From: a virus
Lineage: Duplodnaviria; Heunggongvirae; Uroviricota; Caudoviricetes
Length of the DNA stretch: 64,000 bases
Virus record (IMG/VR): IMGVR_UViG_3300027782_003987
Location: 27,069-91,068 of that record
Direction: 5' to 3' (one strand)
Part shown: positions 17,457-48,331 of the stretch, piece after piece
Layout of the letters: each line of letters begins with the position of its first letter
How positions within the stretch are numbered: the stretch's first letter is position 1
Translations under genes and position numbers: made by a program
Notes under the pieces: generated by a model
The model's database searches: none
Told to the model about the DNA's origin: nothing
The model's input: the letters and a program-made list of their open reading frames with translations, nothing else

Positions 17457-17793
17457 AGAAGAACTTTTAGAATTTTATAAAAACTACAATTGGTCTGATC
17501 CTGCCCCGATTCATTACCGGTTATATCACGACGATGAAGGTACTCCGTTGTTTTACAGTCAGGAAGATTTGCCCGGTAAGTACATTGATATCACGCCCCG
17601 ACAGTTTGCATTGCAGGACATGGAAGCACGAGTAGTTGATGAAAAACTCATCCGCGTCAGGATTTCCTGGTTAAACAAAGTTGTACATGCAGATTCAGGC
17701 ACACTTTGCCACCACAACGATGTAACCATCGTAGTTGATCAACAACCCGGACAGTATTGGAAGAAAAAAGAAAATGTCGTTGAAACAAATTGA
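17449..17793 (+). CDS. hypothetical protein
   Basis: ATG at 17449 overlaps the upstream stop (ATGA). The ORF is listed from 17416. Confidence 0.45.
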   Translation: MNEEELLEFYKNYNWSDPAPIHYRLYHDDEGTPLFYSQEDLPGKYIDITPRQFALQDMEARVVDEKLIRVRISWLNKVVHADSGTLCHHNDVTIVVDQQPGQYWKKKENVVETN

Positions 17794-18706
17794 TATAGCA
17801 GATCTAGACTGCGTTTACCTAAGTTATGATGAACCTGCTAAGGAAGAGTTTTGGGTCAAGATCCGTAACATGGTGCCTTGGGCCACAAGGGTAGATGGTG
17901 TTAAAGGAAGTGATGCAGCACACAAAGCAGCCGCAGCGGCCAGCACTACTGAGCGTTTCATCTTGATAGATGGCGACAATCTTCCTGATCCTGAATTCTT
18001 TAATCAAACACTAAAATTCCCCACCGAAGAACATGAAAAAGCAGTGTTCCGATGGAGAGCTAGAAATCACATCAATGGCTTGATGTATGGCAATGGTGGT
18101 TTAAGTTCTTGGACTAAGACCTATGTGAAAGATATGCACACACATGAGAATACAGATGGGCGCACAGAAACTCAAGTAGAGTTTTGTTTTGATCCATTAT
18201 ATTGGGCTATGCACGACTGTTATAGCACTACACACCCAAATGGATCTGCTTTCCAAGCCTGGCGTGCTGGATTCCGTGAAGGTGTGAAGATGTGCCTGGA
18301 TCGTGGTCGCAGACCCACAGTGAGTGAGTTTCAGACTCTGGTTCATCAACGTAATCTTGATAATCTTACTATTTGGCATAATGTGGGCGCAGATGTGGAT
18401 TACGGATATTGGGCCATTGCAGGTGCAAGGCAGGGCACATACATGACCATGCTCACCAATTGGGATTATTTGCAGGTACAGAACTTTGATGCATTAGCCG
18501 AGCTATGGAAAACTGTAGAGGATGATCAGCCCGAACATATCATTAACAGCATTGCTAATGAATTGCATACTCAGCTGGATCTCCCCATGCACATGCTGAC
18601 AGTAGACGCTAGTAAGTTTTTCAAACATCATTACAAATCAAACTGGCGTAATCGTGATGTTATGGTTCGAGAAATAGACATGGTCCATCAACAAGAAGCA
18701 CGGTAA
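17774..18706 (+). CDS. hypothetical protein
   Basis: ATG at 17774 has an upstream AAAAGAAA RBS-like stretch. The ORF is listed from 17735. Confidence 0.5.
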   Translation: MSLKQIDIADLDCVYLSYDEPAKEEFWVKIRNMVPWATRVDGVKGSDAAHKAAAAASTTERFILIDGDNLPDPEFFNQTLKFPTEEHEKAVFRWRARNHINGLMYGNGGLSSWTKTYVKDMHTHENTDGRTETQVEFCFDPLYWAMHDCYSTTHPNGSAFQAWRAGFREGVKMCLDRGRRPTVSEFQTLVHQRNLDNLTIWHNVGADVDYGYWAIAGARQGTYMTMLTNWDYLQVQNFDALAELWKTVEDDQPEHIINSIANELHTQLDLPMHMLTVDASKFFKHHYKSNWRNRDVMVREIDMVHQQEAR

Positions 18707-19761
18707 TGAACTGGAACTGTGCAGCGATTGATCATGGAATCACTTTTCATGAAAATGGTCAAATAGCACCATGCTGTTTAATCTCGTCTACCTACAGTAA
18801 AAACATCTCAGAAATTGATAACAATCCGTTTGCAGATTTAAAAACATCGACACCTCCACTGGTTTGTAAAGTTTGCGTTGATGCAGAAAATAACAATATA
18901 CCAAGTTATCGCCAAGGATTCAATCAACGAAAAAGCGATCACCCTGGATTTCAGTTTGTCGATATAAGAAATACAAATTTGTGTAACTTTAAATGCAGAA
19001 CTTGTGGACCTCAGAACAGCAATCTCTGGGCCAAGGAACTCGGAGAAACTATTCCTATCAGACATTTTCCATTGTCTAATTACAAACAATATATTGTTAA
19101 TCAAAGTGTGCAGAGCATTTATTATACCGGGGGCGAACCGTTAATCAACAGTGAGCATTGGGATTTGCTAGAAGAATTAACAGTTGCCGGAATGAGTAAA
19201 AATATCACATTAAATTACAATTCCAATATGTCGGTATTAAAATTCAAAGACAAAAATATTTTTGACGTTTGGAAAAATTTTAAATCAGTACAAATTATGG
19301 CCAGCATTGATGCGATCGGAGAAAAGTTTGATCATATACGGTCCGGCGGCAAGTGGGATGTAGCAAATGAAAATATCCGTGCTTTAAAAAACCACAATAT
19401 AACCTTAGCCATTGGGACCACAGTAAGCATTTTGAATTTGTGGTTTTTAGAAGAATTATTGATGTTTTTTAATGATCAGAACATTTCAGTTGAGCTATCT
19501 GATTTGCATTATCCTCCCTACTTTTCATTATCGGCTATACCCGATGAACTTAAAAATTTAGCATTGAGCTGTGTTAATAAAATTGAAAAAATATATCACA
19601 ATAAAAACAAATGTGATTACATGAGATTACAGATAAACAATAATAGTAAGCAACATCTATTCAAAGATGCCGTTATGAAAACTCTATCACTGGATAAAAT
19701 AAGAGGAGAAAAATTATTTGATTTTCTTCCTTTCCGAGATCATGCACTACCGCTAATATGA
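18706..19761 (+). CDS. radical SAM enzyme, subfamily A (N-terminal twitch/SPASM-like Cys domain followed by the rSAM core)
   Basis: CNFKCRTC (CxxxCxxC) and YYTGGEPL (GGE SAM-binding motif). N-terminal APCCLIS...CKVCVDAE cysteine motif. Confidence 0.8.
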   Translation: MNWNCAAIDHGITFHENGQIAPCCLISSTYSKNISEIDNNPFADLKTSTPPLVCKVCVDAENNNIPSYRQGFNQRKSDHPGFQFVDIRNTNLCNFKCRTCGPQNSNLWAKELGETIPIRHFPLSNYKQYIVNQSVQSIYYTGGEPLINSEHWDLLEELTVAGMSKNITLNYNSNMSVLKFKDKNIFDVWKNFKSVQIMASIDAIGEKFDHIRSGGKWDVANENIRALKNHNITLAIGTTVSILNLWFLEELLMFFNDQNISVELSDLHYPPYFSLSAIPDELKNLALSCVNKIEKIYHNKNKCDYMRLQINNNSKQHLFKDAVMKTLSLDKIRGEKLFDFLPFRDHALPLI

Positions 19762-21131
19762 ATAATAAAAGTTTTTTTCAAAACTCGGCTGAGCAAATGA
19801 AAGATCAACTAGGACCTGCACTATGCTTGGCTAAATGGAAACAGGTCAGCTTACATCTTACCACAGGATTAAATAACAGTTGCTACCATCCGCCCTTGCA
19901 TCCGATAGACTCTGCTGCGATTGCTGCTAATCCAGCAGCTCTACATAACACCGAGCATAAAAAAGCACAGCGTAAGATAATGCTACAGCACGAACGTCCT
20001 AGTGAATGTAGTTACTGCTGGAACATGGAAGATCTCGGCAAGCTGAGTGACCGGCATTACAGATCAGGAGAACCATGGGCTGCTGTAGATTTTAAAAAGA
20101 TAAAAAACTCAACTGGAGATGAAGAAGATGTCATACCGTCATATGTGGAAGTCAATTTCAACAATGCCTGCAACCTTAAATGCAGCTATTGCAGCCCGCA
20201 GTTCAGCTCTAGCTGGCAACAAGAAGTTGACCGGCATGGGGCATTTCCTACTTTGGTTCCTCATAACGCTGCTGAGCATTTTAGCGGCAGCCGCAGGCCT
20301 ATCCCTGCCCGTGATCACAACCCTTATGTAGAAGCATTTTGGGCATGGTGGCCCACGCTGTATCCTGAGCTCAAACACTTTCGTATGACCGGCGGCGAAC
20401 CACTGATGGATCGAAACACCTATCGAGTGTTTGACTATGTGTTAGAACACCCCAAGAGCGATCTACATCTAGCAGTCACATCAAACTTCAGCGTAGAGCC
20501 CGAGCTATCAACAAAATACTTTGACTATGTGAAACGCTTATGCGACACTGATATCGAACATTTCATGCAGTATGTTAGCCTTGACTCGGGCACAGGGCCA
20601 CAAGCAGAATACATCCGACATGGATTAGATTTTGACCGCTTAACGCACAATGTGGAAACATATCTCAGAGATATTCCTTATCGTAATAGTCTTACGTTTA
20701 TTGTAACTATGAACAATCTTAGTGTGACAGGGTTCCTGCCATTGATGCAGTGGATATTAGATCTTCGACGCCGACACAGTCACACATATCAGCGTGTGTG
20801 GTTTGATACCCCTGTGTTGAGACAACCTGCATGGCAAAGCCTACAGACCTTGCCTGAGAGCTATGCTGCGAAACTAGAACAAGCAAGAGATTTTATGTTG
20901 GCCAATCTCGAAACTGCAGAAGACCCGTTCCACGGATTCAAGGACTATGAGGTGCAACGACTTGAGCGCGACATTGCCTGGATGCGATCGGTACCAAATG
21001 TAAGCACACGAGACTTGGCAGATTTTTATAGATTCTTCACAGAACACGATCGACGCAGAGGCACAGACTTTGAAAAAACATTCCCAGAGATGATCACCTG
21101 GTGGAAACAGTGTGGTCTGCATGCTAGGTAA
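19758..21131 (+). CDS. radical SAM enzyme, subfamily B (N-terminal AKW...SC-HPP...CSYCW twitch-like domain followed by the rSAM core)
   Basis: CNLKCSYC and RMTGGEPLM motifs. Paralogous to 23398..24729 and 26438..27838. Confidence 0.8.
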   Translation: MNNKSFFQNSAEQMKDQLGPALCLAKWKQVSLHLTTGLNNSCYHPPLHPIDSAAIAANPAALHNTEHKKAQRKIMLQHERPSECSYCWNMEDLGKLSDRHYRSGEPWAAVDFKKIKNSTGDEEDVIPSYVEVNFNNACNLKCSYCSPQFSSSWQQEVDRHGAFPTLVPHNAAEHFSGSRRPIPARDHNPYVEAFWAWWPTLYPELKHFRMTGGEPLMDRNTYRVFDYVLEHPKSDLHLAVTSNFSVEPELSTKYFDYVKRLCDTDIEHFMQYVSLDSGTGPQAEYIRHGLDFDRLTHNVETYLRDIPYRNSLTFIVTMNNLSVTGFLPLMQWILDLRRRHSHTYQRVWFDTPVLRQPAWQSLQTLPESYAAKLEQARDFMLANLETAEDPFHGFKDYEVQRLERDIAWMRSVPNVSTRDLADFYRFFTEHDRRRGTDFEKTFPEMITWWKQCGLHAR

Positions 21132-22278
21132 GTCAAAACTCGTCCTGGACCAGAATTGCCAATTCCACTGCGAAGTGTATGATTTACTACGCCCACTGGC
21201 AGATGATGATTTCTATGAATTACAAGATAAACCGATCTCTACGGGTGCCATTTATGTCGTGGGGTATGCTCAATTTGAAAAGCATAGAGATTGGTTGGTT
21301 GAACTAGTCGAAAGTGACACAGTTAAAATTATCTTGAGTCAGACCTCCGAAGGTTCGTGGACTATGTTAGGAGTATTGAGACGATTGAGAATTGAACATT
21401 TAGTAAAATCCAAGAAAATTTTATTGATAACCACTGGCGACATGGATGATTCTTGGGCAAATCTTCAATTCGACAGTTATATGCTTAGACTATATAATCA
21501 TAAAGAAAACTTAAGAGCATGTGATCGAACCCAGGAAATCTATTCAAAATCTCATAAACCTTACAAATTTCTTTTTTTAAATGGTAGAGGTAGACCACAT
21601 CGTAAGTATCTTATTGAAAGATTTGCTCTGTCAGGAATATTGGATCAATCATTGTGGTCGTCGTTAGACTCAGATACCATTGATAAGCATGGATGGATTG
21701 ATCTGATTCACCAGGGTAAAAATTTAATACTCAATCCAAGACCGATAAAATATCTACCACCCCAATACGAATACGATAGCTATCAAGATAGAATTGATAG
21801 CCCCACCACTGACACATTTGTTAAACATCATCTATTCAATAATACCTGGGGAGATATTTACCTTAAGGCAGAACCTTATATCGATACCTATTTTAGTTTA
21901 GTTACTGAAACAGTATTTTTCTATCCACATTCATTACGGTCTGAAAAAATTTACAAACCCATAGCTATGGGTCATCCGTTCATTGCTGTAGCTAATTGTG
22001 GATTCTATCGAGACTTGCATAAGTTAGGTTTTAAAACATTTGGTCATCTCATCGACGAGAGTTTTGATACTATAGAGGATAATCAATCTCGAATCGAGCG
22101 AATCGCAGAAGTAGTTGAAGACTTATGCCAACAGGATCTGGCAAGTTTCCTTGATTCATGCCATGATATCTGTAAATACAATCAACAACGATATGCAGAA
22201 GCAAGATTAGAAGTACGTGAAGAATTTCCAGATCGCTTTTTAAATTTTCTTAATCAACATTGGCCCAATGCAACATAA
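21121..22278 (+). CDS. unknown-function paralog 'family X' (possible glycosyltransferase-like)
   Basis: Shares the block YFSLVTETVF...SEKIYKPIAMGHPFIAVAN..YRDL.KLGFKTFGH.IDESFD with 22268..23401, 34017..35204 and 35201..36328. Confidence 0.6.
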   Translation: MLGKSKLVLDQNCQFHCEVYDLLRPLADDDFYELQDKPISTGAIYVVGYAQFEKHRDWLVELVESDTVKIILSQTSEGSWTMLGVLRRLRIEHLVKSKKILLITTGDMDDSWANLQFDSYMLRLYNHKENLRACDRTQEIYSKSHKPYKFLFLNGRGRPHRKYLIERFALSGILDQSLWSSLDSDTIDKHGWIDLIHQGKNLILNPRPIKYLPPQYEYDSYQDRIDSPTTDTFVKHHLFNNTWGDIYLKAEPYIDTYFSLVTETVFFYPHSLRSEKIYKPIAMGHPFIAVANCGFYRDLHKLGFKTFGHLIDESFDTIEDNQSRIERIAEVVEDLCQQDLASFLDSCHDICKYNQQRYAEARLEVREEFPDRFLNFLNQHWPNAT

Positions 22279-23401
22279 TTTACAAATAGATACCCGTAGT
22301 GTACTGTATGATATTCTAAAACCCTACGCGGTAGAAGAGTTTTGGGATTTCAGAGACTGCGAGCCAGTTCCTGGCAGTATATATGTGGTCGGCCGGCAAC
22401 AGTTGATAGATAACCTGGACCAGATTCGTAGCATGGCGTTGAGTCAGGATTATACCATGGTGTTTGATTGCGCGGCAGAAGGTTCGTGGACCTTACAACA
22501 ACTAATTCTGTCTCTTAAAATTGACGACTTAATTGTGTCGGGACATCTATTGATGATAGCCGGCGGCGACATGCCTAGCAATTATCCATATATAAGACAT
22601 GATCATTTTATCAATGTGTTCCTGGATTACGAACACAACTTGCAACAAATGACTCGTCTTGATGAATTATACAATCAACCCGATAAACCTTATAAGTTTT
22701 TGTTCCTCAATGGATCTGCCAGAACACACAGGAAATATCTATGGCAACGATTCCGTCAGATGGGGCTATTGGATCAGGCGCTGTGGACCATGTTGGATTC
22801 AAGGCCAGTGAGGTGGGGAAAGATGAAACTAATAGAAAACGGCGTTGATCTCTTTGGTGAGATTACACCTATACAGCACTTGCCCAGCAAATATGAATAC
22901 ATGCAATATCAGGATGTTGAGATAAAAACTGATCCATCGGACCAGAAATTTATCAAACATGATTTATTTGGTAATACCTGGGGAGAAGGTTATTTACAGG
23001 CCGAACCTTATCGTGACACCTATTTTAGTCTTGTTACAGAAACTGTGTTTGGGGAAAGTAATTATAGTTTCCGAACAGAAAAAATAGTCAAACCATTGGC
23101 TATGGGGCATCCTTGGATAGTGGCTGCTAATACCGGCTATTATAGAGATTTACGAAACTTAGGATTCCAAACATTCGGACATGTGATAGATGAAAGTTTT
23201 GATCTAATCGACTCGCCTATGGATCGAGCCGAACGTATTATTTCTATAGTCAACGATTTATGTCAGCAGGATCTTGCAAGTTTCCTTGATTCATGTTACA
23301 ATGTCTGTAAATACAATCAGCAACATCTCCGGGAACTACGCGAACAGATTCGTAAAGAGTTTCCAGACCGTTTTTGGCAATTCCTACAACAACATCAATG
23401 A
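22268..23401 (+). CDS. family X paralog
   Basis: Conserved block YFSLVTETVFGES..FRTEKIVKPLAMGHPWIVAAN.GYYRDLRNLGFQTFGHVIDESFD. Confidence 0.6.
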   Translation: MQHNLQIDTRSVLYDILKPYAVEEFWDFRDCEPVPGSIYVVGRQQLIDNLDQIRSMALSQDYTMVFDCAAEGSWTLQQLILSLKIDDLIVSGHLLMIAGGDMPSNYPYIRHDHFINVFLDYEHNLQQMTRLDELYNQPDKPYKFLFLNGSARTHRKYLWQRFRQMGLLDQALWTMLDSRPVRWGKMKLIENGVDLFGEITPIQHLPSKYEYMQYQDVEIKTDPSDQKFIKHDLFGNTWGEGYLQAEPYRDTYFSLVTETVFGESNYSFRTEKIVKPLAMGHPWIVAANTGYYRDLRNLGFQTFGHVIDESFDLIDSPMDRAERIISIVNDLCQQDLASFLDSCYNVCKYNQQHLRELREQIRKEFPDRFWQFLQQHQ

Positions 23402-24729
23402 CCGATTTAGAATTTAAACAACAGGTGTTGGACACCAAGAGTGCAAGTTTTTGTGCAGCAAAATGGTATAATGCAACCATCTGGTTGGGTAGTGGCATGA
23501 CTACAAGTTGCCATCATCCTCCTGCCCACTTAGTAGATGTATCTATGTTATCCTCTAACCCTAGGCTGCTGCACAATACCGATCAGAAGAAAGAGGATCG
23601 ACGCAAGATGATAGCCGGCGAGCGTCCGTCAGGTTGTGAATATTGCTGGAAAATCGAAGACATGGGCAGTGATGCCATCAGCGATCGTGTGTACAAGAGT
23701 AAAATTTATCCCTTAGAGTTGTTAAATGAAGCACATACCAATCCACCCGATCAGGACTTCAACCTCCGTACCCTGGAGATTGCTTTTGACCGCACTTGTC
23801 AATTTGCTTGCAGTTATTGTAATCCTGCATTCAGCAGCACTTGGGTTCGAGACATTCGTAAAAATGGACCCTATCAGGGCCTTGTGTCTGATGGCAGGAA
23901 TCACTTTACTCATGATCATGGCAGCAGTCAGCTTTATAGCTTCGGTGAAACCAATCCTTATGTGGAGGCGTTCTTTGCGTGGTGGGAGTCGGACCTACAT
24001 CGAACCCTCCAGGAACTGAGAATCACTGGCGGCGAACCACTGATGTCAGGAGAGACTTGGAAACTGATTGATTGGTTCAAGAACAATCCTGGGCGTAGCC
24101 AAACACGCCTGGCAATCAATTCAAATCTAGGCACTGCGGTAGATCTAGATCGATTGATGGCCAGTATTGATGGATTAGAAGTTGACTTATACACTTCCAA
24201 CGAAAGCGTAGGTCTACAGGCTGAATACATCAGAGATGGTCTGGTGTGGGATGACTGGGCTAATAATGTGGAACGCTTGTTGGATAGTAGAAAGTTCCGC
24301 GGCATACACATGATGAACACCATCAATGCATTGTGTCTGTATTCGCTGGATCAGTTCTTGGAATGCATAATGAACTGGAAAATAGAATACGGCCGTGATG
24401 CTGTGAGTTTTACCTTGAACATCCTGAGATTCCCCAGTTTCCAATCACCCTTGGTGTTGCCCAACGAACTACGCACAGTATTTCGACAGCGGTTAGAAGT
24501 CTGGCTTGACGCTTGGTGGAATAGTGAATTCTTGCATGAGCATGAAGTCAACCATGTGCAACGCTTGATTGATTACTTAGACATAGTCAAGACTCCGCAT
24601 TCAGAAGCATTTGACCGGCCCAAGTTGTTGAATGATTTCAAGCAGTTTTACACACAATATGACCAGCGTCGAGGCAAATGCTTTGATCTGGCATTTCCTG
24701 CACTAAAACCCTGGTATGACACACTATGA
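23398..24729 (+). CDS. radical SAM enzyme, subfamily B
   Basis: CQFACSYC and RITGGEPLM motifs. N-terminal AKWYNATIWLGSGMTTSCHHPP...GCEYCW. ATG at 23398 overlaps the upstream stop (ATGA); the ORF is listed from a TTG at 23374. Confidence 0.8.
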   Translation: MTDLEFKQQVLDTKSASFCAAKWYNATIWLGSGMTTSCHHPPAHLVDVSMLSSNPRLLHNTDQKKEDRRKMIAGERPSGCEYCWKIEDMGSDAISDRVYKSKIYPLELLNEAHTNPPDQDFNLRTLEIAFDRTCQFACSYCNPAFSSTWVRDIRKNGPYQGLVSDGRNHFTHDHGSSQLYSFGETNPYVEAFFAWWESDLHRTLQELRITGGEPLMSGETWKLIDWFKNNPGRSQTRLAINSNLGTAVDLDRLMASIDGLEVDLYTSNESVGLQAEYIRDGLVWDDWANNVERLLDSRKFRGIHMMNTINALCLYSLDQFLECIMNWKIEYGRDAVSFTLNILRFPSFQSPLVLPNELRTVFRQRLEVWLDAWWNSEFLHEHEVNHVQRLIDYLDIVKTPHSEAFDRPKLLNDFKQFYTQYDQRRGKCFDLAFPALKPWYDTL

Positions 24730-26441
24730 CACTAGATGAAAAAATAACACAACTAAAAGCTCAGTACGATGTCGTGGCAGTGATCAATCTTGACCCATGG
24801 CACGATCAGACTGAATATGGTAAAAAACCTTGGCTGATGCAAACTATCAGTCTTGTGCATCAAGATCCTTATGCAGATAATCAGAGAATATTGTTCACAG
24901 TCTCACGAGGTGATATCTACGCAGAAAACGATAGTCCAGCAGGGCAGTTATTAACACAACTACAACGAAGACTAAACGAAATTGATATATCTAATTTTTT
25001 TATCATAGTGCTTACTAATGATATCACAATGAGAGATGCATATCTCGGTCACTATCAAGATTTTTCACAAGATCCTGTTCCATTTACTGTGGAGGTCTAT
25101 GCTGACGAGATTACGGAACGACATATACAAGATAAAATGTCTAACAACACAACAGCGGGCAAGTATAATTACACCAATCTAGATCCAATAAAGATTGATG
25201 TCAAAGATCTCAGTGAGCAAGAAAAATTCCTGCTCACAAAAAGTTCTACATTTTGTATGTTTCCGTGGATACATATTCACGCTTATCCTACTGGCTCAGC
25301 GTATCCATGTTGTATGGCGGAGATGGAATTTCCTATTGGTGATATGAGAAAAAACACCATTCGGGAAATATGGAATCAGGAACCCATGAAACAAATACGC
25401 AGGCAGATGCTAAACGAAAGATCTCTCCCGGCTTGTAACAGATGCTATGAACAAGAATCAATTGGAGTTGTTAGTGGAAGAATGAGTGCTAACAAGCATC
25501 ACGGCCATCTAATCAACCGTATACATGAAACTAAAGAAGATGGAACACTAGATAGATTTGAATTGACCTACTGGGATATAAGATTTTCAAATCTCTGTAA
25601 CCTCAGTTGCCGTAGTTGCGGGCATATATTCTCAAGCTCTTGGTATCAGGATCAAGCCAAAATAGCCGGGCCAGAGTGGAAAAAAACACACAAGGTATTA
25701 AACTATGCTGGTAGATTTGAAACGGATGCGTGGGATCAGTTGGTAGATCATATTGAACATGTGGAACAGATCTACTTTGCAGGCGGCGAGCCTTTGCTGA
25801 TGGAAGAGCATTATAAGATTCTTGATGAACTGGTGCGTCGAGAAAAGTTTGATGTAAGATTGATTTACAACACTAATTTTACTCATACCAATCTTAAAGA
25901 TAAGAGCGTATTTGAATATTGGAAATTATTTGATTCAGTCAGCGTAGGTGCTAGCCTTGATGGATCCGGAAGATATGGCGAATATATACGTAAGGGTACT
26001 GAGTGGAAACAAGTTGAACAAAATAGGATTGACATGTTAAAAATTTGCCCAAAAGTAGATTTTTACATCAGCCCTACGCTCAGTATAATGAATGCCTGGC
26101 ATCTTCCGGACTTTCATCGAGACTGGGTAGAACTCGGACTTATCAAGCCCCAAGATATCAACGTGAACATCTTACAAGATCCGCCATACTATCGAATTGA
26201 TATTGCTCCGATAAAATATAAACAACGTCTACGGATAAAATATCAAGAACATCTAGAATGGTTAAAAAATCAAGATCCATTACAGCGGGCCAGCACAGGA
26301 TTCAACTCAGCTATCAATTTTATGATGGCCGCAGACAACACACATCTTATTGATACTTTTTGGCGTAAAACACATGAGCTAGATGCTATACGTTCAGAAA
26401 GCTGGTCAGATGTGTTGCCCGAGCTGAGTGCATTGCAATGA
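24726..26441 (+). CDS. radical SAM enzyme, subfamily A, with an extra 170-aa N-terminal domain
   Basis: N-terminal FCMFPWIHIHAYPTGSAYPCC...IGDMRKNTIREIWNQE...ACNRCYEQE matches the SPASM first-half consensus. Followed by CNLSCRSC and YFAGGEPLLM. Confidence 0.8.
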   Translation: MTLDEKITQLKAQYDVVAVINLDPWHDQTEYGKKPWLMQTISLVHQDPYADNQRILFTVSRGDIYAENDSPAGQLLTQLQRRLNEIDISNFFIIVLTNDITMRDAYLGHYQDFSQDPVPFTVEVYADEITERHIQDKMSNNTTAGKYNYTNLDPIKIDVKDLSEQEKFLLTKSSTFCMFPWIHIHAYPTGSAYPCCMAEMEFPIGDMRKNTIREIWNQEPMKQIRRQMLNERSLPACNRCYEQESIGVVSGRMSANKHHGHLINRIHETKEDGTLDRFELTYWDIRFSNLCNLSCRSCGHIFSSSWYQDQAKIAGPEWKKTHKVLNYAGRFETDAWDQLVDHIEHVEQIYFAGGEPLLMEEHYKILDELVRREKFDVRLIYNTNFTHTNLKDKSVFEYWKLFDSVSVGASLDGSGRYGEYIRKGTEWKQVEQNRIDMLKICPKVDFYISPTLSIMNAWHLPDFHRDWVELGLIKPQDINVNILQDPPYYRIDIAPIKYKQRLRIKYQEHLEWLKNQDPLQRASTGFNSAINFMMAADNTHLIDTFWRKTHELDAIRSESWSDVLPELSALQ

Positions 26442-27838
26442 CAAAAAATCTACATCTATACATAACAGAACAAGATTATAAAGAAATGGCTGGGTCAGAC
26501 TGGCCTTTGTATAGTAATTTTTTGCAAGGAGCTCGTGGAGAGAAACCAGCGGTACAACAAGAGCTAGAAGCATATATCAAAATGCATCGAGCACAAGGAA
26601 TAAAATTTCCTATCAAGACTGCCACGGCTTGTCAAAGCAAATGGACCTGGAGCACGATCTATCTTAATTCACTTAGCACAGCCAGCTGCCACCGTGTTAA
26701 CCCGATACCTTTTGATCTTGAAGATTTTGATAATTTCCATAACATACCCAAGAAACTTAACGATCGACGGCTCATGCTTGAAGGCAAATGGCCCACCGGT
26801 GGATGTGAATACTGTCAAGAAATTGAAAATGCAGGTGGCTGGAGTGATCGACAACATAATCTAGACATAAGAGGACTTACTCCTCCGGAACTGGAGTCGG
26901 ACCCCACTGCTGTGTCAGTTACTCCTCGACTGGTTGAGATATTTGCTCAGAACACCTGTAATCTAAGTTGCGTTTATTGCAATGGATCTTTGAGCAGCAA
27001 AATCGAACAAGAAAATATCAAGCATGGAGAGTTTACCCAAGGTAATGTAACAATACCGATTGTAACAATTCCCACAGCAGCAACCAAAGAATACTTTGAT
27101 CGATTTCTTGCTTGGCTAGAAAAAAACATTCAAGAACTGCCTCGATTGCATCTATTAGGAGGAGAAACATTTATACAGCACGAGTTGATGAATTCGGTGT
27201 TAGACATAATAGAACGCAAGCCCAATCCAAATTTAGAACTCTGTATTTTTAGTAATTGTAATGTGCCCGACAAATGGTGGGATTATTACATTGGCCGAAT
27301 CCATGCACTACAAATCGCAGGAAACATGAAAGTATTTGATCTAACAGCCAGCATTGATTGTTGGGGGCCTGAACAGGAGTATGTAAGATCTGGACTCAAT
27401 TTAAACAAGTTTGAAAAACGATTCGCATGGGCAAGTCAACAAGGGGATTGGTTACGACTCAATGCCAATCAGACCGTTACTGCAATGACTATAAAAACAA
27501 TGCCCGGGCTGATTGAAAAAATAAAACAATATAGTAAAAACAAACACATTGGGCATTATTTTCAATTTTACACCGGGGTGCATATGTTTCACCATCCAAA
27601 GATATTCGCTTGGGATTTTTGGAAAGATGATTTTGAAAAAATATTAAATACCATGCCCACCGACACAGGCGCACAAAGAGAAGCGATTCCTCGTATGCAA
27701 GGATTGCAGAGTTTGTTAAAGCAAAGTTCAGAGAATGATCTGGTTTCTATAAAGCAGTTGCATGTGTACCTCGACGAACTTGATCGACGTCGATCGACTA
27801 ATTGGCGGTCTTTGTTTTCCTATCTTGACGTATCATGA
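26438..27838 (+). CDS. radical SAM enzyme, subfamily B
   Basis: CQSKWTW...SCHRVNPIPF...GCEYCQE N-terminal domain, then CNLSCVYC and HLLGGETFI. Confidence 0.8.
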   Translation: MTKNLHLYITEQDYKEMAGSDWPLYSNFLQGARGEKPAVQQELEAYIKMHRAQGIKFPIKTATACQSKWTWSTIYLNSLSTASCHRVNPIPFDLEDFDNFHNIPKKLNDRRLMLEGKWPTGGCEYCQEIENAGGWSDRQHNLDIRGLTPPELESDPTAVSVTPRLVEIFAQNTCNLSCVYCNGSLSSKIEQENIKHGEFTQGNVTIPIVTIPTAATKEYFDRFLAWLEKNIQELPRLHLLGGETFIQHELMNSVLDIIERKPNPNLELCIFSNCNVPDKWWDYYIGRIHALQIAGNMKVFDLTASIDCWGPEQEYVRSGLNLNKFEKRFAWASQQGDWLRLNANQTVTAMTIKTMPGLIEKIKQYSKNKHIGHYFQFYTGVHMFHHPKIFAWDFWKDDFEKILNTMPTDTGAQREAIPRMQGLQSLLKQSSENDLVSIKQLHVYLDELDRRRSTNWRSLFSYLDVS

Positions 27839-29040
27839 AAATACCCCACGAACAATTCTGCGTATTACCCTGGATTAGTTTGGAAGCCAGTCCTATTGGT
27901 ACTGTGAGACCTTGTTGTCTGGCCGATGACGAGGTTCATGATGATGCCGGAAATAAATTTGAATTAGCCACAGCTGATTTTTCTACTATACAAAATAGTC
28001 GTCACATGCAAGAACTACGCACAGGATTCTTGTCAGGACAACGGCCAGAAACATGTAGAAAATGTTGGAACGAAGAAGATGCAGGCCGTACAAGTAAACG
28101 TATGCATACATTAGATCGTCTCAAACACTCACTGAAGGATGATGATTGGAGCTCGGATGCTAAATCATTGATGTTCTTAGATCTCAAACTGGGCAACATT
28201 TGCAATCTCAAATGTAGGATATGCGGGTCATGGTCGAGCTCACAGTTTGCTGGAGAAGAGATTTCTTTCATGCCACGAGCAGAACAAAAATCCAGCCATG
28301 CTTACAAAATGTTACGAGCTGGCGCCTGGCCCAAAGAGAACACACAGTTCTGGCAGCAGATTGATAGCGTGCTTGATGATATACGCTACATTGAATTCAC
28401 CGGTGGCGAACCATTTATGATTGATCAACACTTTGACATGTTGCAACACATAGTGGATCGTGGTATTGCTGGGCAAGTTGAAATACACTATAACACCAAT
28501 GGCACATTGTTTCCTGATCGTGGACCGGATATATGGCGACACTTTAAAACTGTGGAAATTGCGTTCAGTGTGGATGATATTGGTCCACGATTTGAATATC
28601 AACGCTCAAATGCCTCTTGGGGCACCGTGAAAGAGAACATCAACCGGTTCAGGATCATGCGTGAAGGTATGCCTAACTTACAGTTGCAATGCTGCACCAC
28701 GGTGAATGTGTTTAATGTGAGATATCTTGATCAAGTAGCACTATGGATAGCATTGCAAGATTTTGATTTTGTGTATTGGAACATGATGCATGATGCTTGG
28801 TATTTTTCGATATCAAGACTGCCCGCCGACGCTAAACAACACATTGCTGATTATCTAGCAACCTGTGATACACCTGACCAGTTCCGAGAGGAGTTTGGAC
28901 GTATCATTGATTTTATGATGCGGGGTGAATCATCTGACGGCGAAGAAACAAGACAACAGATTCGTCGACTGGATCAACGTAGGCACGAAGATCTAACAAA
29001 AATAGCGCCAGAGTTAGCAAGTATATTAAATTATAACTAA
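27835..29040 (+). CDS. radical SAM enzyme, subfamily A
   Basis: FCVLPWISLEASPIGTVRPCC...TCRKCWNEE N-terminal domain, then CNLKCRICGS and EFTGGEPFM. Confidence 0.8.
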   Translation: MKIPHEQFCVLPWISLEASPIGTVRPCCLADDEVHDDAGNKFELATADFSTIQNSRHMQELRTGFLSGQRPETCRKCWNEEDAGRTSKRMHTLDRLKHSLKDDDWSSDAKSLMFLDLKLGNICNLKCRICGSWSSSQFAGEEISFMPRAEQKSSHAYKMLRAGAWPKENTQFWQQIDSVLDDIRYIEFTGGEPFMIDQHFDMLQHIVDRGIAGQVEIHYNTNGTLFPDRGPDIWRHFKTVEIAFSVDDIGPRFEYQRSNASWGTVKENINRFRIMREGMPNLQLQCCTTVNVFNVRYLDQVALWIALQDFDFVYWNMMHDAWYFSISRLPADAKQHIADYLATCDTPDQFREEFGRIIDFMMRGESSDGEETRQQIRRLDQRRHEDLTKIAPELASILNYN

Positions 29041-29041
29041 T

Positions 29042-30157
29042 ATGGGATTTTTTTGTGCCTTTCCTTTTGAAAAATTGCAGATCTTCAGCGACGGAAGTAC
29101 AAATCCTTGTTGCATGTGGACCGGTGACAAAACCGAAACATTAGGCACATATTTTCAAAGCCACCAGATTGCACAGGTTCAGAAACAATTATTACAAGAC
29201 CAAGTGCCTAGGCAATGTATCAAATGCTATGACAGCGAACAACGGTCTGGGCAGAGTCTTAGGACCATGAACCAGGCTTTTGAAAATGTTGAATCGGTTA
29301 TCCGAGATCGAGCAACTACTTTACCTAGCTTTGATATCAAAGAAATATCTATTGCAACTAGCAATATTTGCAATCTCAAGTGTTTGCCTTGTGAGAATGC
29401 AAGTTATCTAAGAAACGTAGAATTACACAAATTAAAAATAAAAAAAGATGTTCCTATACTAGCAATTTATAAAAATGAATACAATCTCAAAGACTTTAAA
29501 TCATTGGAACAAATAACTTTTCTCGGCGGCGAACCGTTTGCAGACAAAATCACATTTGAACTAATAGATCAGCTGATTGAATCAGGACAAAGTCGAAACA
29601 TTAGATTAGATCTAAATACAAATCTGACGCTGTGTAACAGAGAAAATCTTTTAAAGATTCGTGACAATTTTCAAGACGTGCTCATCAAAGGTAGCATTGA
29701 TGGCACAGGAGAATTCCATGAATATTTACGTTACCCTAGCAAATGGACAGAGATTGAACAAGCCGTTGACCTAATCCAAGAACTTGAAATTCCAATGATA
29801 CTGACCACGGCATTGAGTAATTTAGCATTGCTACGATATGTTGATCTTGTGCATTGGGCTATGCATCGGGGAATAAATGAGTTATTCTTGAGCATGGTAG
29901 ACACGCCAAAAGTTCTAACATTCGACCATTTGCCATTGGCTATTAAATCTCAGTTGCTAGAACAATTTAAAATTTTACGCACACAATATCCGTTTACCGG
30001 ACGCACTGAATATGCTATTGATACGTGTATAAAAATTTGCTCCAATACTGATATAGAGCATGACATGTCGGATCTAAGTAGTTGGTTGAGCAAGCATGAT
30101 GATCTCAGGGGAACAGATTTTAGAAAACTATGGCCGGAGTTAAATGACCACATCTAA
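29042..30157 (+). CDS. radical SAM enzyme, subfamily A
   Basis: FCAFPFEKLQIFSDGSTNPCC...QCIKCYDSE N-terminal domain, then CNLKCLPC and TFLGGEPFAD. Confidence 0.8.
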   Translation: MGFFCAFPFEKLQIFSDGSTNPCCMWTGDKTETLGTYFQSHQIAQVQKQLLQDQVPRQCIKCYDSEQRSGQSLRTMNQAFENVESVIRDRATTLPSFDIKEISIATSNICNLKCLPCENASYLRNVELHKLKIKKDVPILAIYKNEYNLKDFKSLEQITFLGGEPFADKITFELIDQLIESGQSRNIRLDLNTNLTLCNRENLLKIRDNFQDVLIKGSIDGTGEFHEYLRYPSKWTEIEQAVDLIQELEIPMILTTALSNLALLRYVDLVHWAMHRGINELFLSMVDTPKVLTFDHLPLAIKSQLLEQFKILRTQYPFTGRTEYAIDTCIKICSNTDIEHDMSDLSSWLSKHDDLRGTDFRKLWPELNDHI

Positions 30158-31442
30158 ATCACTGTGTTTAGCACCTTGGGTTCACACCTATCTCTCTCCG
30201 CAGACCGAAAGACGTATGTGCTGTGCGTCAAGAGAGCCGGCACAGAATTTCCAACAATACATTGATACTGAATCAGGAACAGGTACTTTCATTCCCATCA
30301 CATTGGAAGAACACTGGAATGGTGATCACATGAGATCGGTCCGACGCCGTATGATGGCCGGAGAACTCTTGCCTGAGTGTGAAGTGTGCAATGATCAGCT
30401 GTTGAATACAGATGTATATCGCACATATTTTGGACAGCTCTTTCAACATAAATACTTTGAAATTTTAGAACAAACGGATGCCGACGGTTACACCACAATG
30501 CAACCAGTGAGTTGGGATTATAGATTCAGCAACCTGTGCAATTTCAAGTGCAGGACATGTGGTGACATGTTAAGCAGTAGTTGGGAATCGGAAGAAAAGA
30601 CACATCATATGGTCAATTGGTCCGATTCCAAAAACAATTGGATGCGACCCAAGGTACGAGAACAGATAAGCCAGTTCCAAGACAATCAAATTGAACAAGA
30701 GTTCAGTGATGCTGTAGAACAACATAGGGTAGAGGAAGTGTATTGGGTAGGCGGTGAACCGTTGATGTATGAGCAGCATTGGCGATACATGCAACGTATA
30801 ATAGAACTAGGAGATGGGCCAAGAGTATATGCTAGATATAATACAAATTTATCCAGGGTGGAGTATCGTGGCATCAATCTCTATCGCGACATTCTTCCTG
30901 GGATTAGGGATTGGCAGATATGTGCAAGTCTCGACGGCACAGGCTCAATTGGAGAATACATTAGAACAGGCCTTGATTATGATCAATGGCTTGAACACTT
31001 CCGTGGAGCAGTTGCAATCAAATCTCACTCACGTCAAGTCAGAATTGACTTTACGCTCACTCTGCCCGGAATGTTCGAAGTTGGCTCAATTACAGAACTC
31101 GCTAGACAATTCGGCGTAGATATTTTAGCCAAAGTTATCTTCTCATTCACTCCAGAGATCATCATGAGTCCATTGGCCTTGCCCAGGCATTTGCTTGAGC
31201 CTTGGCTGGACGAATTGATTCCGGAAACAACAGGGGCCATGAAAGATGTGTTGATACAGTTAAAGAATCGCCCTACATTTGAAGAACAATGGCCAGATAC
31301 TTATAAACAAGGTCTTGCTCAAGGCCGTGCTCGTATGTTACAATTAGAACAGATACGAACTAACCCGATAACTATGACCGATATCCTATCAGCAAGACCT
31401 GATGTACTAAAATGGTGGATGGAAATTGACGAATTTAATTGA
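30144..31442 (+). CDS. radical SAM enzyme, subfamily A
   Basis: LCLAPWVHTYLSPQTERRMCC...ECEVCNDQ N-terminal domain, then CNFKCRTCGD and YWVGGEPLMY. Confidence 0.8.
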   Translation: MTTSKSLCLAPWVHTYLSPQTERRMCCASREPAQNFQQYIDTESGTGTFIPITLEEHWNGDHMRSVRRRMMAGELLPECEVCNDQLLNTDVYRTYFGQLFQHKYFEILEQTDADGYTTMQPVSWDYRFSNLCNFKCRTCGDMLSSSWESEEKTHHMVNWSDSKNNWMRPKVREQISQFQDNQIEQEFSDAVEQHRVEEVYWVGGEPLMYEQHWRYMQRIIELGDGPRVYARYNTNLSRVEYRGINLYRDILPGIRDWQICASLDGTGSIGEYIRTGLDYDQWLEHFRGAVAIKSHSRQVRIDFTLTLPGMFEVGSITELARQFGVDILAKVIFSFTPEIIMSPLALPRHLLEPWLDELIPETTGAMKDVLIQLKNRPTFEEQWPDTYKQGLAQGRARMLQLEQIRTNPITMTDILSARPDVLKWWMEIDEFN

Positions 31443-32463
31443 AATAGATCTGCGTAGCAAACACGATCATGTGCTAACCGTGTACGTTGATGTAGAGGAC
31501 AACAGCCTTTCACGAAAATGGTTGGCAGCATTGACTCATCTGATCGAGCATGACTATCATCTAGAAAAAAACTACTGCTGGTTAGGATGGGCCGAAGGCG
31601 ATCGCTCACTAGAATACATCTGTGGAGAAATCAATCGCAGTATCGCGGCTGTCAACGCAGCTGATCTAGGATATAAGATTGACGATGTGTTCTCTCCGGA
31701 AAATACTGTAGCTGATGATCTTGGTATCAATCATGATCATATGAATCAATTACATAGATACTTTGAAGATTTGCAAGGTGTATCGGGTGCAATGAGTCCG
31801 TATTATACAGCCGCTGATGCAACCACACGCTGGCATATACGACAGTTGAATCTGCTATGTCACGAGCATGAAAGTTTAGTGTTGAGTATGCGTAAGTTAC
31901 AACAAGCACCCGAATGGCGCAGGCCATCTCAACTGATGTGCTGGTTGCAGGCACCAAGATTTGTATTAGATCGTGAAGATTACGAACTGTTTGGTGTAGA
32001 TACTATCAATCGAAAAATAGGTGGAGTATACGTAGGAGTTAACAAAGCAGTAGGAAAACATCATTGGGAAGTATTCAATGATGAAGGTCGAGATAGTCGT
32101 GTGGGAGAATTAGTGACCAGCAGCTTGAAATCACAGACCGAGGCCGCGGGAGATTTTGATATTGAATGGGCCAAGGATCCAGGTGCGTTTCCTTGGCAGG
32201 TAAAGGCACTAACTGAGTTTAGAACATGGCTTGTAACAAACGGGTTTGATCCTGAAGATAAATCGCTAACCATTGGACACCCCAAGGTAGCACAGGTAGA
32301 TCTCATGCGTAGTTTTGGAACAACAGACTACAATGATATTTGGATTCAATTAGCCGATCATCTAGATGTTTATAAAATAAGAATCGGTGAAAAACAAGCT
32401 ACATATGAGTATCGTTGGAGTGACCCTGACTATCAACAACAACAAATAAGGAACATGCTATGA
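31426..32463 (+). CDS. hypothetical protein (TTG start)
   Basis: 345-aa ORF in the operon with no recognisable motifs. Confidence 0.5.
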   Translation: MTNLIEIDLRSKHDHVLTVYVDVEDNSLSRKWLAALTHLIEHDYHLEKNYCWLGWAEGDRSLEYICGEINRSIAAVNAADLGYKIDDVFSPENTVADDLGINHDHMNQLHRYFEDLQGVSGAMSPYYTAADATTRWHIRQLNLLCHEHESLVLSMRKLQQAPEWRRPSQLMCWLQAPRFVLDREDYELFGVDTINRKIGGVYVGVNKAVGKHHWEVFNDEGRDSRVGELVTSSLKSQTEAAGDFDIEWAKDPGAFPWQVKALTEFRTWLVTNGFDPEDKSLTIGHPKVAQVDLMRSFGTTDYNDIWIQLADHLDVYKIRIGEKQATYEYRWSDPDYQQQQIRNML

Positions 32464-32561
32464 ATTGGATTAAAAGAATGTGGGCCAAGATCACACTAGA
32501 AATTCGCTATCGTAAAAAATTGCGAGAACTTCGTAAACGAGATCCGTTCATCTACAAATGA
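32460..32561 (+). CDS. small basic hypothetical peptide (33 aa, MNWIKRMWAKITLEIRYRKKLRELRKRDPFIYK)
   Basis: ATGA overlaps with both flanking genes, filling the gap between 32463 and 32558. Under 60 aa, so absent from the ORF track. Confidence 0.3.
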   Translation: MNWIKRMWAKITLEIRYRKKLRELRKRDPFIYK

Positions 32562-34033
32562 ACTATGTAGGAATATCTGCTGGATTCCATGATGCCGCTG
32601 TAAGTGTGATCAATCAGGCTGGCGATATCTTATTTGCTGCTCATAGCGAACGCTACAGCAAGAAAAAGCACGACAAGGATATCTGTGAAGATCTCATACT
32701 AGATGCGTTAGCGCATACAGATTCCGATAAACTAGAGTATCACTACTACGAACGCCCGTGGATTAAAGCCATGCGACAACTACGCAGTGGCGAAGGATTC
32801 TCATGGCCCAGTTGGGATCGACTGCTAGGATCTGCATACAGAATCATAGGGCGGCCTCAGATACATACTCATGGGCATCACCTGTGTCACGCAGCAGCAG
32901 GATTCCAGACCAGTCCATTTGAGGATGCCACTGTGGTGGTGATAGATGCCATTGGTGAGTTTGATACCATAACCATTTGGGATGCTTGGTATGAAAACGG
33001 GCAAGCCAAATACAAAAAAGTGTGGAGCCTGGGATATCCCAATAGCATTGGATTATTTTACTCGGCCATGACTGCCCGTGTGGGACTCAAACCCATGGAT
33101 GAAGAATACATACTCATGGGCATGGCAGCATATGGCGAACCTGTGTATCTTGACGAGATACGGAAGCAACTGCTAGATCTATCAAAAGGCTTACACTTTA
33201 AAAAGAATCTACACATTGGTGTAGACGATGATTTCTTGCCTCATGCTGATCCTGCAAACATTGCCAGCACAGCACAATTTCTAGTGGAAAGCATGATCCG
33301 AGATGTTCTACAAAAGGCCAGAGAGCATGGGCGCAGCCGTAATCTAGTATACGGCGGTGGTGTGGCATTGAACTGCCTGGCCAATAGATTCTTAGGACAA
33401 TACTATGAAAAAATTTGGATCATGCCTAATCCGGGGGATGCTGGCAATAGTCTCGGTGCTAGTTGTTTGGCTCATGGTGGCCGTGTTAATTGGCGAGATG
33501 CTTTTCTCGGGCATAATATACCCGGTGCTTACCCGGTAAACGAAATCTTGGATTATCTAGTCACAGACAAGATCGTGGGTGTGGCATCGGGCCGTGCAGA
33601 GTTTGGCCCAAGAGCATTAGGAAATCGTAGTCTACTAGCAGATCCTCGAGGGCATTCAATAAAGAACCGAGTGAATGAGATCAAACGTCGACAAAAGTTC
33701 CGACCATTTGCACCAGTGATTCTAGAAGAATATGCAGCAGAATACTTTGACATGCCGCCTAACTTTAATACCAGCCCATACATGCAGGTAGTGGCCGACT
33801 GCCGCAATCCAGAACTATTCCCAGCCATTGTGCATGTGGATGCCACCAGCAGAGTGCAGACCGTGCCTCGAGATGGATCGGGTATTCGCCAACTATTAGA
33901 AAAATGGTATGTGATGACCGGATGCCCTATGCTGTTAAACACCAGTCTCAACATTCGCGGAGAGCCTATGGTCAACGATCCTGGGGATGCTGATCGATTC
34001 CAGCGGGTTTACGGAATCAAGGTCTGTAGCTGA
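32558..34033 (+). CDS. carbamoyltransferase (NodU/CmcH family)
   Basis: N-terminal GISAGFHDAAVSV...AAHSERYSKKKHD is typical of NodU/CmcH O-carbamoyltransferases; 491 aa. Confidence 0.7.
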   Translation: MNYVGISAGFHDAAVSVINQAGDILFAAHSERYSKKKHDKDICEDLILDALAHTDSDKLEYHYYERPWIKAMRQLRSGEGFSWPSWDRLLGSAYRIIGRPQIHTHGHHLCHAAAGFQTSPFEDATVVVIDAIGEFDTITIWDAWYENGQAKYKKVWSLGYPNSIGLFYSAMTARVGLKPMDEEYILMGMAAYGEPVYLDEIRKQLLDLSKGLHFKKNLHIGVDDDFLPHADPANIASTAQFLVESMIRDVLQKAREHGRSRNLVYGGGVALNCLANRFLGQYYEKIWIMPNPGDAGNSLGASCLAHGGRVNWRDAFLGHNIPGAYPVNEILDYLVTDKIVGVASGRAEFGPRALGNRSLLADPRGHSIKNRVNEIKRRQKFRPFAPVILEEYAAEYFDMPPNFNTSPYMQVVADCRNPELFPAIVHVDATSRVQTVPRDGSGIRQLLEKWYVMTGCPMLLNTSLNIRGEPMVNDPGDADRFQRVYGIKVCS

Positions 34034-44822: not shown

Positions 44823-44853
44823 TAGTGCAGTATAACTGAGATTGCATTTCTAG

Positions 44854-45265: not shown

Positions 45266-45291
45266 CTGGTACTCCTTGTTGCTATGTATGT

Positions 45292-45320
45292 ATTATAGCA
45301 TTTCGAGCAATACCGGTCTA
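45292..45320 (-). promoter_or_regulatory. sigma70-like promoter TAGACC-N17-TATAAT (minus strand)
   Basis: Minus strand reads cggTAGACCggtattgctcgaaatgcTATAATaca. Near-identical to the copy at 48641. Confidence 0.55.
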
Positions 45321-46162: not shown

Positions 46163-46195
46163 ATGGAAAACGGGGACCGTAGTCCCCGTCCTTGT

Positions 46196-48329: not shown

Positions 48330-48331
48330 GA

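Follow-up and report, generated by a model that had tools for sequence, protein, structure and literature searches.

Can the auxiliary-cluster domain of a radical SAM (rSAM) enzyme stand ahead of its catalytic core? This question is raised by a 64,000-nucleotide stretch of uncultured-phage DNA (hereafter the window), for which the original prediction placed a SPASM/twitch-like Cys domain before the CxxxCxxC core in the rSAM genes at 24726-31442. In all five rSAM genes of that segment, a four-Cys domain indeed precedes the core within the same ORF, and the product of 24726-26441 contains the segments that had been quoted for it, FCMFPWIHIHAYPTGSAYPCC, IGDMRKNTIREIWNQE and ACNRCYEQE. The extent given for the array was too short, however, as eight paralogs span 18706-31442, which adds the genes at 18706-19761, 19758-21131 and 23374-24729.

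The eight proteins were compared with the NCBIfam model NF033640 ("N_Twi_rSAM, twitch domain-containing radical SAM protein"), which has 398 model positions and a curated cut-off of 170 bits. Eight of eight scored above the cut-off, with 191-405 bits, and matched the model end to end, from positions 1-5 to positions 385-397 of 398. From these profile matches the eight proteins are classified as predicted radical SAM enzymes of the curated N_Twi_rSAM family. The family comprises approximately 7,400 clusters at 50% identity. A full-length profile match with the same domain layout was found in 150 out of the best 150 among 7,403 clusters (E<=1e-30), and an ortholog cluster with 79% identity (P0114) already carries an NCBI name of the N_Twi_rSAM type. 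Members of the family still commonly occur in tandem arrays or as fusions of two modules. A gene-calling artefact, which had been argued against from the differing frames of neighbouring genes, can be ruled out, because neighbouring genes overlap by 4-28 nt in different frames, each domain pair lies within a single ORF and the layout recurs in the best 150 of the 7,403 family clusters. The twitch domain ahead of the rSAM core is a real arrangement in all eight proteins.

All eight genes lie on the plus strand and encode N_Twi_rSAM proteins of A-type or B-type. The array opens with an A-type protein of 351 aa (18706..19761; NF033640 228.9 bits), in which the twitch Cys C5, C23/24, C54 and C57 (nt 18718-18876) are followed by CxxxCxxC at residues 93-100 (nt 18982-19005). 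Since related loci offer only ~27% matches to it, this is a window-specific extra paralog. The next protein is B-type, with 457 aa (19758..21131; 317.6 bits), twitch Cys C23, C42, C84 and C87 (nt 19824-20018) and CxxxCxxC at residues 138-145 (nt 20169-20192), and it has ~71% identical orthologs in 82 of 82 related loci. A second B-type protein of 451 aa (23374..24729; 288 bits), kept in 80 of the 82 loci with ~73% identity, places C27, C46, C88 and C91 (nt 23452-23646) before residues 142-149 (nt 23797-23820). It is followed by the largest A-type protein, of 571 aa (24726..26441; 404.7 bits), with C177, C195/196, C237 and C240 (nt 25254-25445) and the core motif at residues 291-298 (nt 25596-25619). 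The divergent B-like protein of 466 aa (26438..27838; 191 bits) has C65, C84, C123 and C126 (nt 26630-26815) and CxxxCxxC at residues 174-181 (nt 26957-26980); related loci give only ~28% matches. Three A-type genes complete the array. The protein used for modelling has 401 aa (27835..29040; 337.6 bits), with C9, C27/28, C74 and C77 (nt 27859-28065), CxxxCxxC at residues 123-130 (nt 28201-28224) and GGE at 190-192. Another window-specific extra paralog of 371 aa (29042..30157; 236.7 bits) carries C5, C23/24, C59 and C62 (nt 29054-29227) ahead of residues 110-117 (nt 29369-29392). The last, of 432 aa (30144..31442; 283.6 bits), has C8, C26/27, C79 and C82 (nt 30165-30389) and CxxxCxxC at residues 132-139 (nt 30537-30560), and ~74% identical orthologs occur in all related loci.

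In the alignment of the eight paralogs, which are 18-26% identical, the only invariant Cys are four in the N-domain (C9, C28, C74 and C77 in 27835-29040 numbering) and the three of the rSAM motif. The latter (C123, C127 and C130), together with the equally invariant GGE (G190-G191-E192), reach at least 99% conservation in the family. Conservation of the N-domain Cys in homologs had been proposed as a check, and it was found to be 96-100% in 189 domains taken from representatives of 150 clusters with a mutual identity of at most 50%. Because these are the only invariant Cys outside the core motif among such divergent paralogs, and are kept to this degree across the family, the N-domain pattern is not due to chance.

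The first half of the SPASM/twitch Cys motif has been described as CX9-15GX4C ... CX2C (PMC6231123, PMC9012708). A strict regular expression of this motif matches six of the eight proteins, and in the products of 26438 and 30144 the Cys spacing is kept while the Gly is absent. For the B-type proteins, the Cys domain is present as claimed, but its spacing is C-x13-G-x4-C instead of C-x10-G, and 26438 lacks the HPP motif in addition to the Gly. Likewise, the location of the A-type domain in the N-terminal ~90 aa does not apply to the 571-aa protein, where it occupies residues 177-240 behind a 170-aa N-terminal extension that has no family assignment. The Aux II motif CX2CX5CX3C ... C is absent, and no Cys is conserved past the CxxC in either the eight paralogs or the 150-cluster family alignment, which argues for a twitch domain and not a full SPASM domain. 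Judged by sequence, the N-domain is thus a predicted twitch domain with BtrN-like Cys placement.

Profile comparisons point the same way. Pfam SPASM (PF13186) detected two A-type proteins above its gathering threshold (E 5.9e-13 and 3.6e-6) and two below it. The best match covers residues 177-241 of the 24726..26441 product and profile positions 1-67 of 67, in agreement with the proposed similarity of the A-type N-domain to the first half of SPASM. The TIGR04085 SPASM model aligned only over positions 8-64 of 93, with a score under its cut-off. The B-type N-domain is tied to the A-type profile by hhalign with 99.4% probability (E 7.5e-22), so that similarity to SPASM/twitch families was obtained for both types. 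Taken together, the profile match, the B-to-A link and the conserved Cys support a separate lineage in which the two modules have changed places, and neither of the outcomes named beforehand as refuting it was obtained. This order had been catalogued beforehand by NCBI, which curates the lineage as NF033640; new here are its members in an uncultured phage and the presence of eight paralogs in one operon.

The AlphaFold (AF2) model of the 27835..29040 protein reached a pLDDT of 93.4 and a pTM of 0.90, a value that means a confidently predicted domain arrangement and carries no information on metal or cluster position. The predicted N-domain fold, a beta-hairpin followed by a helix, is similar to solved SPASM/twitch domains, and the top five PDB matches of the N-domain modelled alone were anSME, PqqE, BtrN, BlsE and CteB. 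The PDB holds no entry for the NF033640 family and no solved structure that spans the N-domain plus the core. We know of no characterised member of the family, and a library search of the literature returned nothing specific on N-terminal twitch/SPASM domains, NF033640 or jumbo-phage rSAM arrays.

The three dispersed rSAM genes at 55981, 60655 and 62967 keep the usual C-terminal order (CX10-12GX4C...CX2-3C), as had been stated. Pfam SPASM gave no match to these three. When the N-domain profiles were aligned by hhalign to their C-terminal Cys regions and to that of a canonical-order rSAM of Azospirillum, only short, non-significant matches resulted, the best with 31% probability over a 'G..PCC' stretch. 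The gene at 51952 had been regarded as PqqE-like with a C-terminal auxiliary domain. This assignment does not hold, as TIGR02109 gives 14.9 bits where its cut-off is 381 and the auxiliary Cys domain is absent: the 210-aa product of 51952-52584 contains C14 and the CxxxCxxC motif as its only Cys.

The operon genes from 17735 to 32463 overlap or abut, again on the plus strand. A 323-aa partner (17735..18706) abuts the first rSAM gene and is found in 70 of 82 related viral loci with ~74% identity; it had no match in Pfam, NCBIfam, PHROG or PDB. Two paralogous genes (21112..23401; 388 and 377 aa) are inserted inside the array, whereas ~71 related loci have one copy of this gene type; neither has a family match, and a PDB sequence search with the 22268 gene gave no usable match. 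The gene for a 345-aa partner (31426..32463) shares 17 nt with the last rSAM gene and is present in 73 of 82 loci (~70% identity), also with no meaningful family match and no usable match in a PDB sequence search. It is followed by a NodU/CmcH-type carbamoyltransferase of 491 aa (32558..34033, plus strand; Pfam Carbam_trans_N E 8.6e-38, Carbam_trans_C E 9.9e-50), which stands beside the rSAM array in 72 of the 82 loci. Each of the related loci encodes 3-9 N_Twi-type rSAM domains (median 5), and the viral contigs that keep the operon reach 352 kb in length. The conserved core consists of five rSAMs, three family-less proteins and the carbamoyltransferase, to which the window adds three extra rSAM paralogs. 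A reading by eye of 15896, 16683 and 17735 as GT-A-like was unsupported by Pfam, NCBIfam and PDB profile searches, and a profile of the 15896/16683 paralogs had no PDB match. Upstream of the array lies a structural module with a 4080-aa ORF, a Peptidase_G2-like protein, whose second match is a virion-structural PHROG, and a Ser/Thr-rich 334-aa protein. Genes for a DegT aminotransferase, an epimerase/dehydratase and a GFO/IDH/MocA protein lie at 37947-40992; they occur in few related loci, in a region at or beyond the edge of the flanks compared. Megablast found no close phage relatives, and tblastn only Vibrio and Ralstonia jumbo phages with ~24% identity.

A bacterial sister branch shares the N-terminal Cys domain and has NF033640 as its top match, with 107-135 bits. 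These scores are below the 170-bit cut-off, and moving its gene context to the phage enzymes is therefore an extrapolation. In three of four bacterial neighbourhoods examined, the branch sits amid gene kinds typical of polysaccharide clusters (carbamoyltransferase, UDP-sugar dehydrogenase, epimerase/dehydratases, FkbM methyltransferases and glycosyltransferases), with no single neighbourhood having the full set. The Chloroflexi neighbourhood held nothing informative on function. A fusion with a GT2 glycosyltransferase domain occurs in one member (P0430).

Taken as a whole, the explanation we favour, and hold to be somewhat probable, is that N_Twi_rSAM enzymes with an N-terminal twitch cluster form an operon that tailors a carbohydrate-type product. 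The twitch domain, a truncated SPASM of beta-hairpin plus helices, supplies the four conserved Cys, one before the hairpin, one just behind it and the CxxC past the main helix. In the predicted fold, a linker of ~40 residues leads to a partial TIM-barrel core with the CxxxCxxC cluster and GGE, where SAM would be bound and cleaved, and the chain ends in a helical domain of ~100 residues. We infer that the N-domain holds an Fe-S cluster packed near the active site, which could take up the electron of the substrate radical or pass it on, a role that has been proposed in BtrN and anSME. Because the carbamoyltransferase adjoins the array and the sister branch sits in polysaccharide clusters, the substrates may be sugars, nucleotide-sugars or a glycan, which the operon of these large aquatic phages would jointly tailor during infection.

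Other explanations were considered for both the cluster and the substrate. A C...C plus CxxC arrangement of four Cys can also bind Zn, and the N-terminal module might bind Zn for structural purposes or be a degenerate remnant, with no redox-active auxiliary Fe-S cluster. We regard this as very improbable, given that the homology in sequence and fold is specifically to Fe-S-binding SPASM/twitch domains, that the Cys fall at the BtrN ligand positions and that they are 96-100% conserved among the 150 cluster representatives of this family.

With respect to the substrate, the enzymes might resemble RiPP maturases and modify a peptide or protein, either a structural protein of the virion or a precursor that has escaped recognition, with one cross-link or epimerisation per paralog. 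Peptides are the substrates of most characterised SPASM/twitch enzymes (PMC9012708), the array lies directly downstream of the structural module, and the secondary NCBIfam matches are to PapB, WgkB, StsB and ScmE, all far under their cut-offs. However, profile searches of the rSAM proteins revealed no RRE or peptide-binding domain, and in a non-exhaustive peptide search the overlapping operon left no space for a free-standing small precursor gene. Moreover, the carbamoyltransferase conserved beside the array is of the sugar type, and the relatives in bacteria are found in polysaccharide clusters, one with the GT2 fusion, which makes peptide modification unlikely. Nucleotides or phage DNA, acted on by viperin-like chemistry or in a base-hypermodification pathway, are a still less likely substrate: the viperin scores are all far under the cut-off and cover the shared core only, the conserved operon has no other identified DNA-modification genes, and ThyX falls outside the conserved block.

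Returning to carbohydrate tailoring, it is conceivable, though doubtful, that the array is a multi-step phage radical pathway that decorates the virion or host envelope with a carbamoylated sugar or glycan not described so far, and that the twitch came to lie at the N-terminus by true circular permutation, with its cluster placed as in BtrN, via tandem arrays and two-module fusions. A structure of an N_Twi_rSAM protein would tell whether auxiliary-cluster placement depends on chain order, and a known substrate would give function to many unannotated phage and bacterial genes, in view of the very large size of the family and its frequent occurrence in aquatic phages. For the window itself, the practical outcome is the annotation of eight N_Twi_rSAM paralogs in one operon.

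Among radical SAM enzymes, LipA and MiaB/RimO have other N-terminal auxiliary-cluster domains. The closest known architecture is that of NF033640 itself, in which the order of twitch, rSAM core and C-terminal domain is identical to that of the eight window proteins. In reviews, SPASM/twitch domains are by definition extensions on the C-terminal side of the rSAM core (PMC9012708), whereas in N_Twi_rSAM a module of this type presumably works from the N-terminal side. Accordingly, the SPASM enzymes anSME, PqqE, CteB and SuiB differ from the window proteins in two respects: their domain is C-terminal, whereas it is N-terminal in each of the eight and in the family at large, and they have the second-cluster part CX5CX3C ... 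C that is missing here. BtrN, the butirosin 2-deoxy-scyllo-inosamine dehydrogenase (PDB 4M7T/4M7S), is only 18% identical to the window proteins and carries its twitch domain after the barrel instead of before it, and it lacks their extra C-terminal helical domain of ~100 residues. Its twitch domain binds one auxiliary [4Fe-4S] cluster that is fully ligated, and the Cys placement in the window N-domains agrees with this description (PMC6231123).

A single run of overlapping or abutting genes occupies 17735-32463 on the + strand and contains eight paralogous radical SAM (rSAM) genes: 18706-19761, 19758-21131, 23374-24729, 24726-26441, 26438-27838, 27835-29040, 29042-30157 and 30144-31442, hereafter named by their start coordinates. 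Two paralogous genes without assigned function (21112-23401, +) split the array. All eight rSAM products carry a Cys ... Cys(Cys) ... CxxC block 5′ of the CxxxCxxC motif in the same reading frame. The original prediction had placed a SPASM/twitch-like cysteine domain before the rSAM core in 24726-31442. The segments it quoted are found in the window and the rSAM genes of that stretch belong to the array, which comprises eight such genes rather than five. The observation is confirmed. Adjacent genes sit in different frames, so mis-called genes do not account for the order of the domains. The 571-aa product of 24726 also has a ~170-aa N-terminal extension preceding the twitch domain (residues 1-170; 24726-25235, +). 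The extension is kept in orthologs of 568-571 aa and has no family match, the sole hit being a 15-bit match to PgaB.

Outside the array, three dispersed rSAM genes on the - strand (55981-57024, 60655-61488 and 62967-63959) encode a twitch-like CX10-12GX4C ... CX2-3C pattern near the C-terminus, so both domain orders occur in one genome, as originally proposed. None of these C-terminal cysteine domains matched Pfam SPASM. Around the three lie short genes lacking an assignment, together with one weakly GT2-like gene (57024-57782). A fourth gene predicted to be PqqE-like with the C-terminal order (51952-52584, -) turned out to encode a 210-aa minimal rSAM without an auxiliary cysteine domain; it is not PqqE-like, and its best match, below threshold, is a prokaryotic viperin-like model.

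We then aligned the eight paralogs; residue numbers follow the 401-aa protein encoded by 27835-29040, to which the other paralogs are only 18-26% identical. Exactly seven cysteines are invariant, namely C9, C28, C74 and C77 of the N-terminal domain (N-domain) and C123, C127 and C130 of the rSAM motif, and the GGE motif is likewise invariant. A profile built from the eight paralogs was searched against 1.84 billion cluster representatives and retrieved 7,403 clusters at E<=1e-30. In each of the best 150 of these, the match spans about profile positions 4-394, end to end, and thus the layout of N-domain plus core is family-wide. The N-domain cysteines are also conserved across homologs, in 100%, 96%, 99% and 100% of the 189 domains from those best 150 representatives; 72% of the domains carry the additional cysteine of the 'CC' pair.

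Among the A-type proteins (18706, 24726, 27835, 29042 and 30144), N-domains align to Pfam SPASM (PF13186) over all of its 67 positions; two hits pass the gathering score (E 5.9e-13 and 3.6e-6) and two fall short of it (E 3.4e-3 and 3.1e-2). For the B-type proteins (19758 and 23374) there was no direct PF13186 match; they are linked through the A-type, as an hhalign comparison of 51 B-type with 123 A-type N-domains gave 99.4% probability (E 7.5e-22) and kept the cysteines aligned. The SPASM motif is CX9-15GX4C-gap-CX2CX5CX3C-gap-C, and twitch is its truncated form, a beta-hairpin followed by a helix that binds one cluster; in BtrN the hairpin is flanked on either side by one of the four ligand cysteines, and the remaining two follow the helix (PMC6231123). 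In the array the pattern is CX12-13GX4C followed by CX2C; 26438 and 30144 keep the cysteine spacing but not the Gly. Since the alignment and motif scan revealed no conserved cysteine beyond CX2C, the N-domain is of the twitch type and not a full SPASM domain. In the AlphaFold2 model of the 401-aa protein (mean pLDDT 93.4, pTM 0.90), C9 lies before hairpin 15-18/23-25, C27/C28 after this hairpin and C74/C77 after helix 56-66. The interpretation as an N-terminal twitch-like domain is supported.

All eight proteins match the NCBIfam model NF033640 end to end, scoring 191-405 bits where the curated cut-off is 170. The model has the short name N_Twi_rSAM and the product name 'twitch domain-containing radical SAM protein', which NCBI already uses for P0114, a cluster with 79% identity to the 401-aa protein. 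From the name, we take 'N_Twi' to mean 'N-terminal twitch'. SPASM and twitch domains have been defined as C-terminal extensions (PMC9012708), and no paper on an N-terminal twitch form was found in the literature searched. PDB sequence and fold searches found no solved structure with N-terminal twitch and core; the closest entry by sequence, TigE (8vpo), matched the core alone, and the longest fold alignments covered about 240 of 401 residues. The lineage is an already curated, very large and functionally uncharacterised database family, to which the window adds members.

Related loci contain 3-9 such rSAM domains each (median five) within 10 kb on either side. Comparison of these loci defined a conserved core, on the + strand in the window, of 17735-18706, the B-type genes 19758 and 23374, one gene of the 21112/22268 type, the A-type genes 24726, 27835 and 30144, 31426-32463 and a carbamoyltransferase (32558-34033). 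Family and PDB searches found no family for the four conserved partner proteins. Paralogs 18706, 26438 and 29042 have matches in other loci at the paralog level only, and are thus extras of this genome. Two-module N_Twi_rSAM fusions of 800-850 aa are common among metagenomic relatives, and metagenomic fusions of two, sometimes three, complete modules span 800-1200 aa (P0121-P0177, P0178-P0198). Within the fused chains a twitch domain comes after a barrel, which is the intermediate that a route of permutation by duplication would require.

A 91-kb JGI/IMG metagenome contig encodes the exact proteins. More than 80 IMG/VR viral contigs, with lengths of up to 352 kb, carry orthologs of the 401-aa protein at 65-88% identity; of 185,579 species genomes a single one has them, a metagenome-assembled genome (MAG). 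The latter matches are two contigs (L081 and L082; 183 and 148 kb) of the MAG Haliscomenobacter sp. EUL_031, each with a 70% ortholog; either phage contigs were possibly binned into a bacterial genome, or the matches hint at the host. Predicted structures from uncultured Caudovirales and Vibrio phage KVP40 match the full-length model (TM 0.6-0.85), and Vibrio phage K566 has four such rSAM genes in an array. Elsewhere the window encodes phage-type genes: ThyX, a protein that has a Peptidase_G2-like C-terminus and a match to a virion-structural PHROG (13099-14514, +), and a DUF2201 metallopeptidase/VWA protein (43500-44822, -) paired with a MoxR-type AAA ATPase (46196-47281, -). From these genes and the viral relatives we assign the window to the genome of a large, uncultured aquatic phage. 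Between and after the DUF2201/MoxR pair (44822-48744), only poorly supported ORFs were seen on both strands.

Directly upstream of the rSAM operon, a 4080-aa ORF (37-12279, +), the Peptidase_G2-like protein and a Ser/Thr/Gly/Ala-rich 334-aa protein (14528-15532, +) resemble, as a group, a fibre or spike module of the virion; that the 334-aa protein is a glycosylation target is speculation. The products of 15896-16699 and 16683-17456 (+) are distantly paralogous (21-24% identity) and contain 'DAD'/'EAD' motifs, and 17735-18706 carries a 'LIDGDN' motif. Assignment of 15896, 16683 and 17735 as GT-A glycosyltransferases by eye was unsupported by Pfam, NCBIfam, PHROGs and PDB profile searches.

An Azospirillum brasilense plasmid encodes a distant bacterial relative that shares the N-terminal cysteine domain (C15, C34/35, C78, C81, then CxxxCxxC at 139). 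Its gene is part of a polysaccharide cluster (L084; NZ_CP059454, 10125-35039), together with a carbamoyltransferase, a nucleotide-sugar dehydrogenase, three epimerase/dehydratases, FkbM and class I methyltransferases and a glycosyltransferase. An rSAM of canonical order, its 'G..PCC ... CxxC' pattern at the C-terminus, is found in the cluster as well. For relatives of the Azospirillum protein, NF033640 is the best family, matched from model position 3-5 at 107-135 bits, below the cut-off. Their recurring neighbours are FkbM methyltransferases, UDP-sugar dehydrogenase, epimerase, WecA-type transferase and pyruvyl transferase, and one metagenomic relative is joined to a GT2 glycosyltransferase domain (L088, 2676-4967). 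The Chloroflexi neighbourhood of a bacterial relative held nothing informative on function.

In the phage, three observations point in the same direction: the carbamoyltransferase is conserved, sugar genes are present at 37947-40992 (DegT aminotransferase, epimerase/dehydratase and GFO/IDH/MocA), and in fold comparisons the core is akin to BlsE and the N-domain to BtrN. We take them to favour a role in which the rSAM enzymes would tailor a sugar, nucleotide-sugar or glycan. We put the chance of such a substrate at just under even. Modification of a protein or peptide ranks after it and is unlikely, and a nucleotide or DNA substrate is more improbable still. The putative auxiliary cluster may serve as an electron acceptor or conduit, by likeness to BtrN, anSME and SuiB (PMC9012708).
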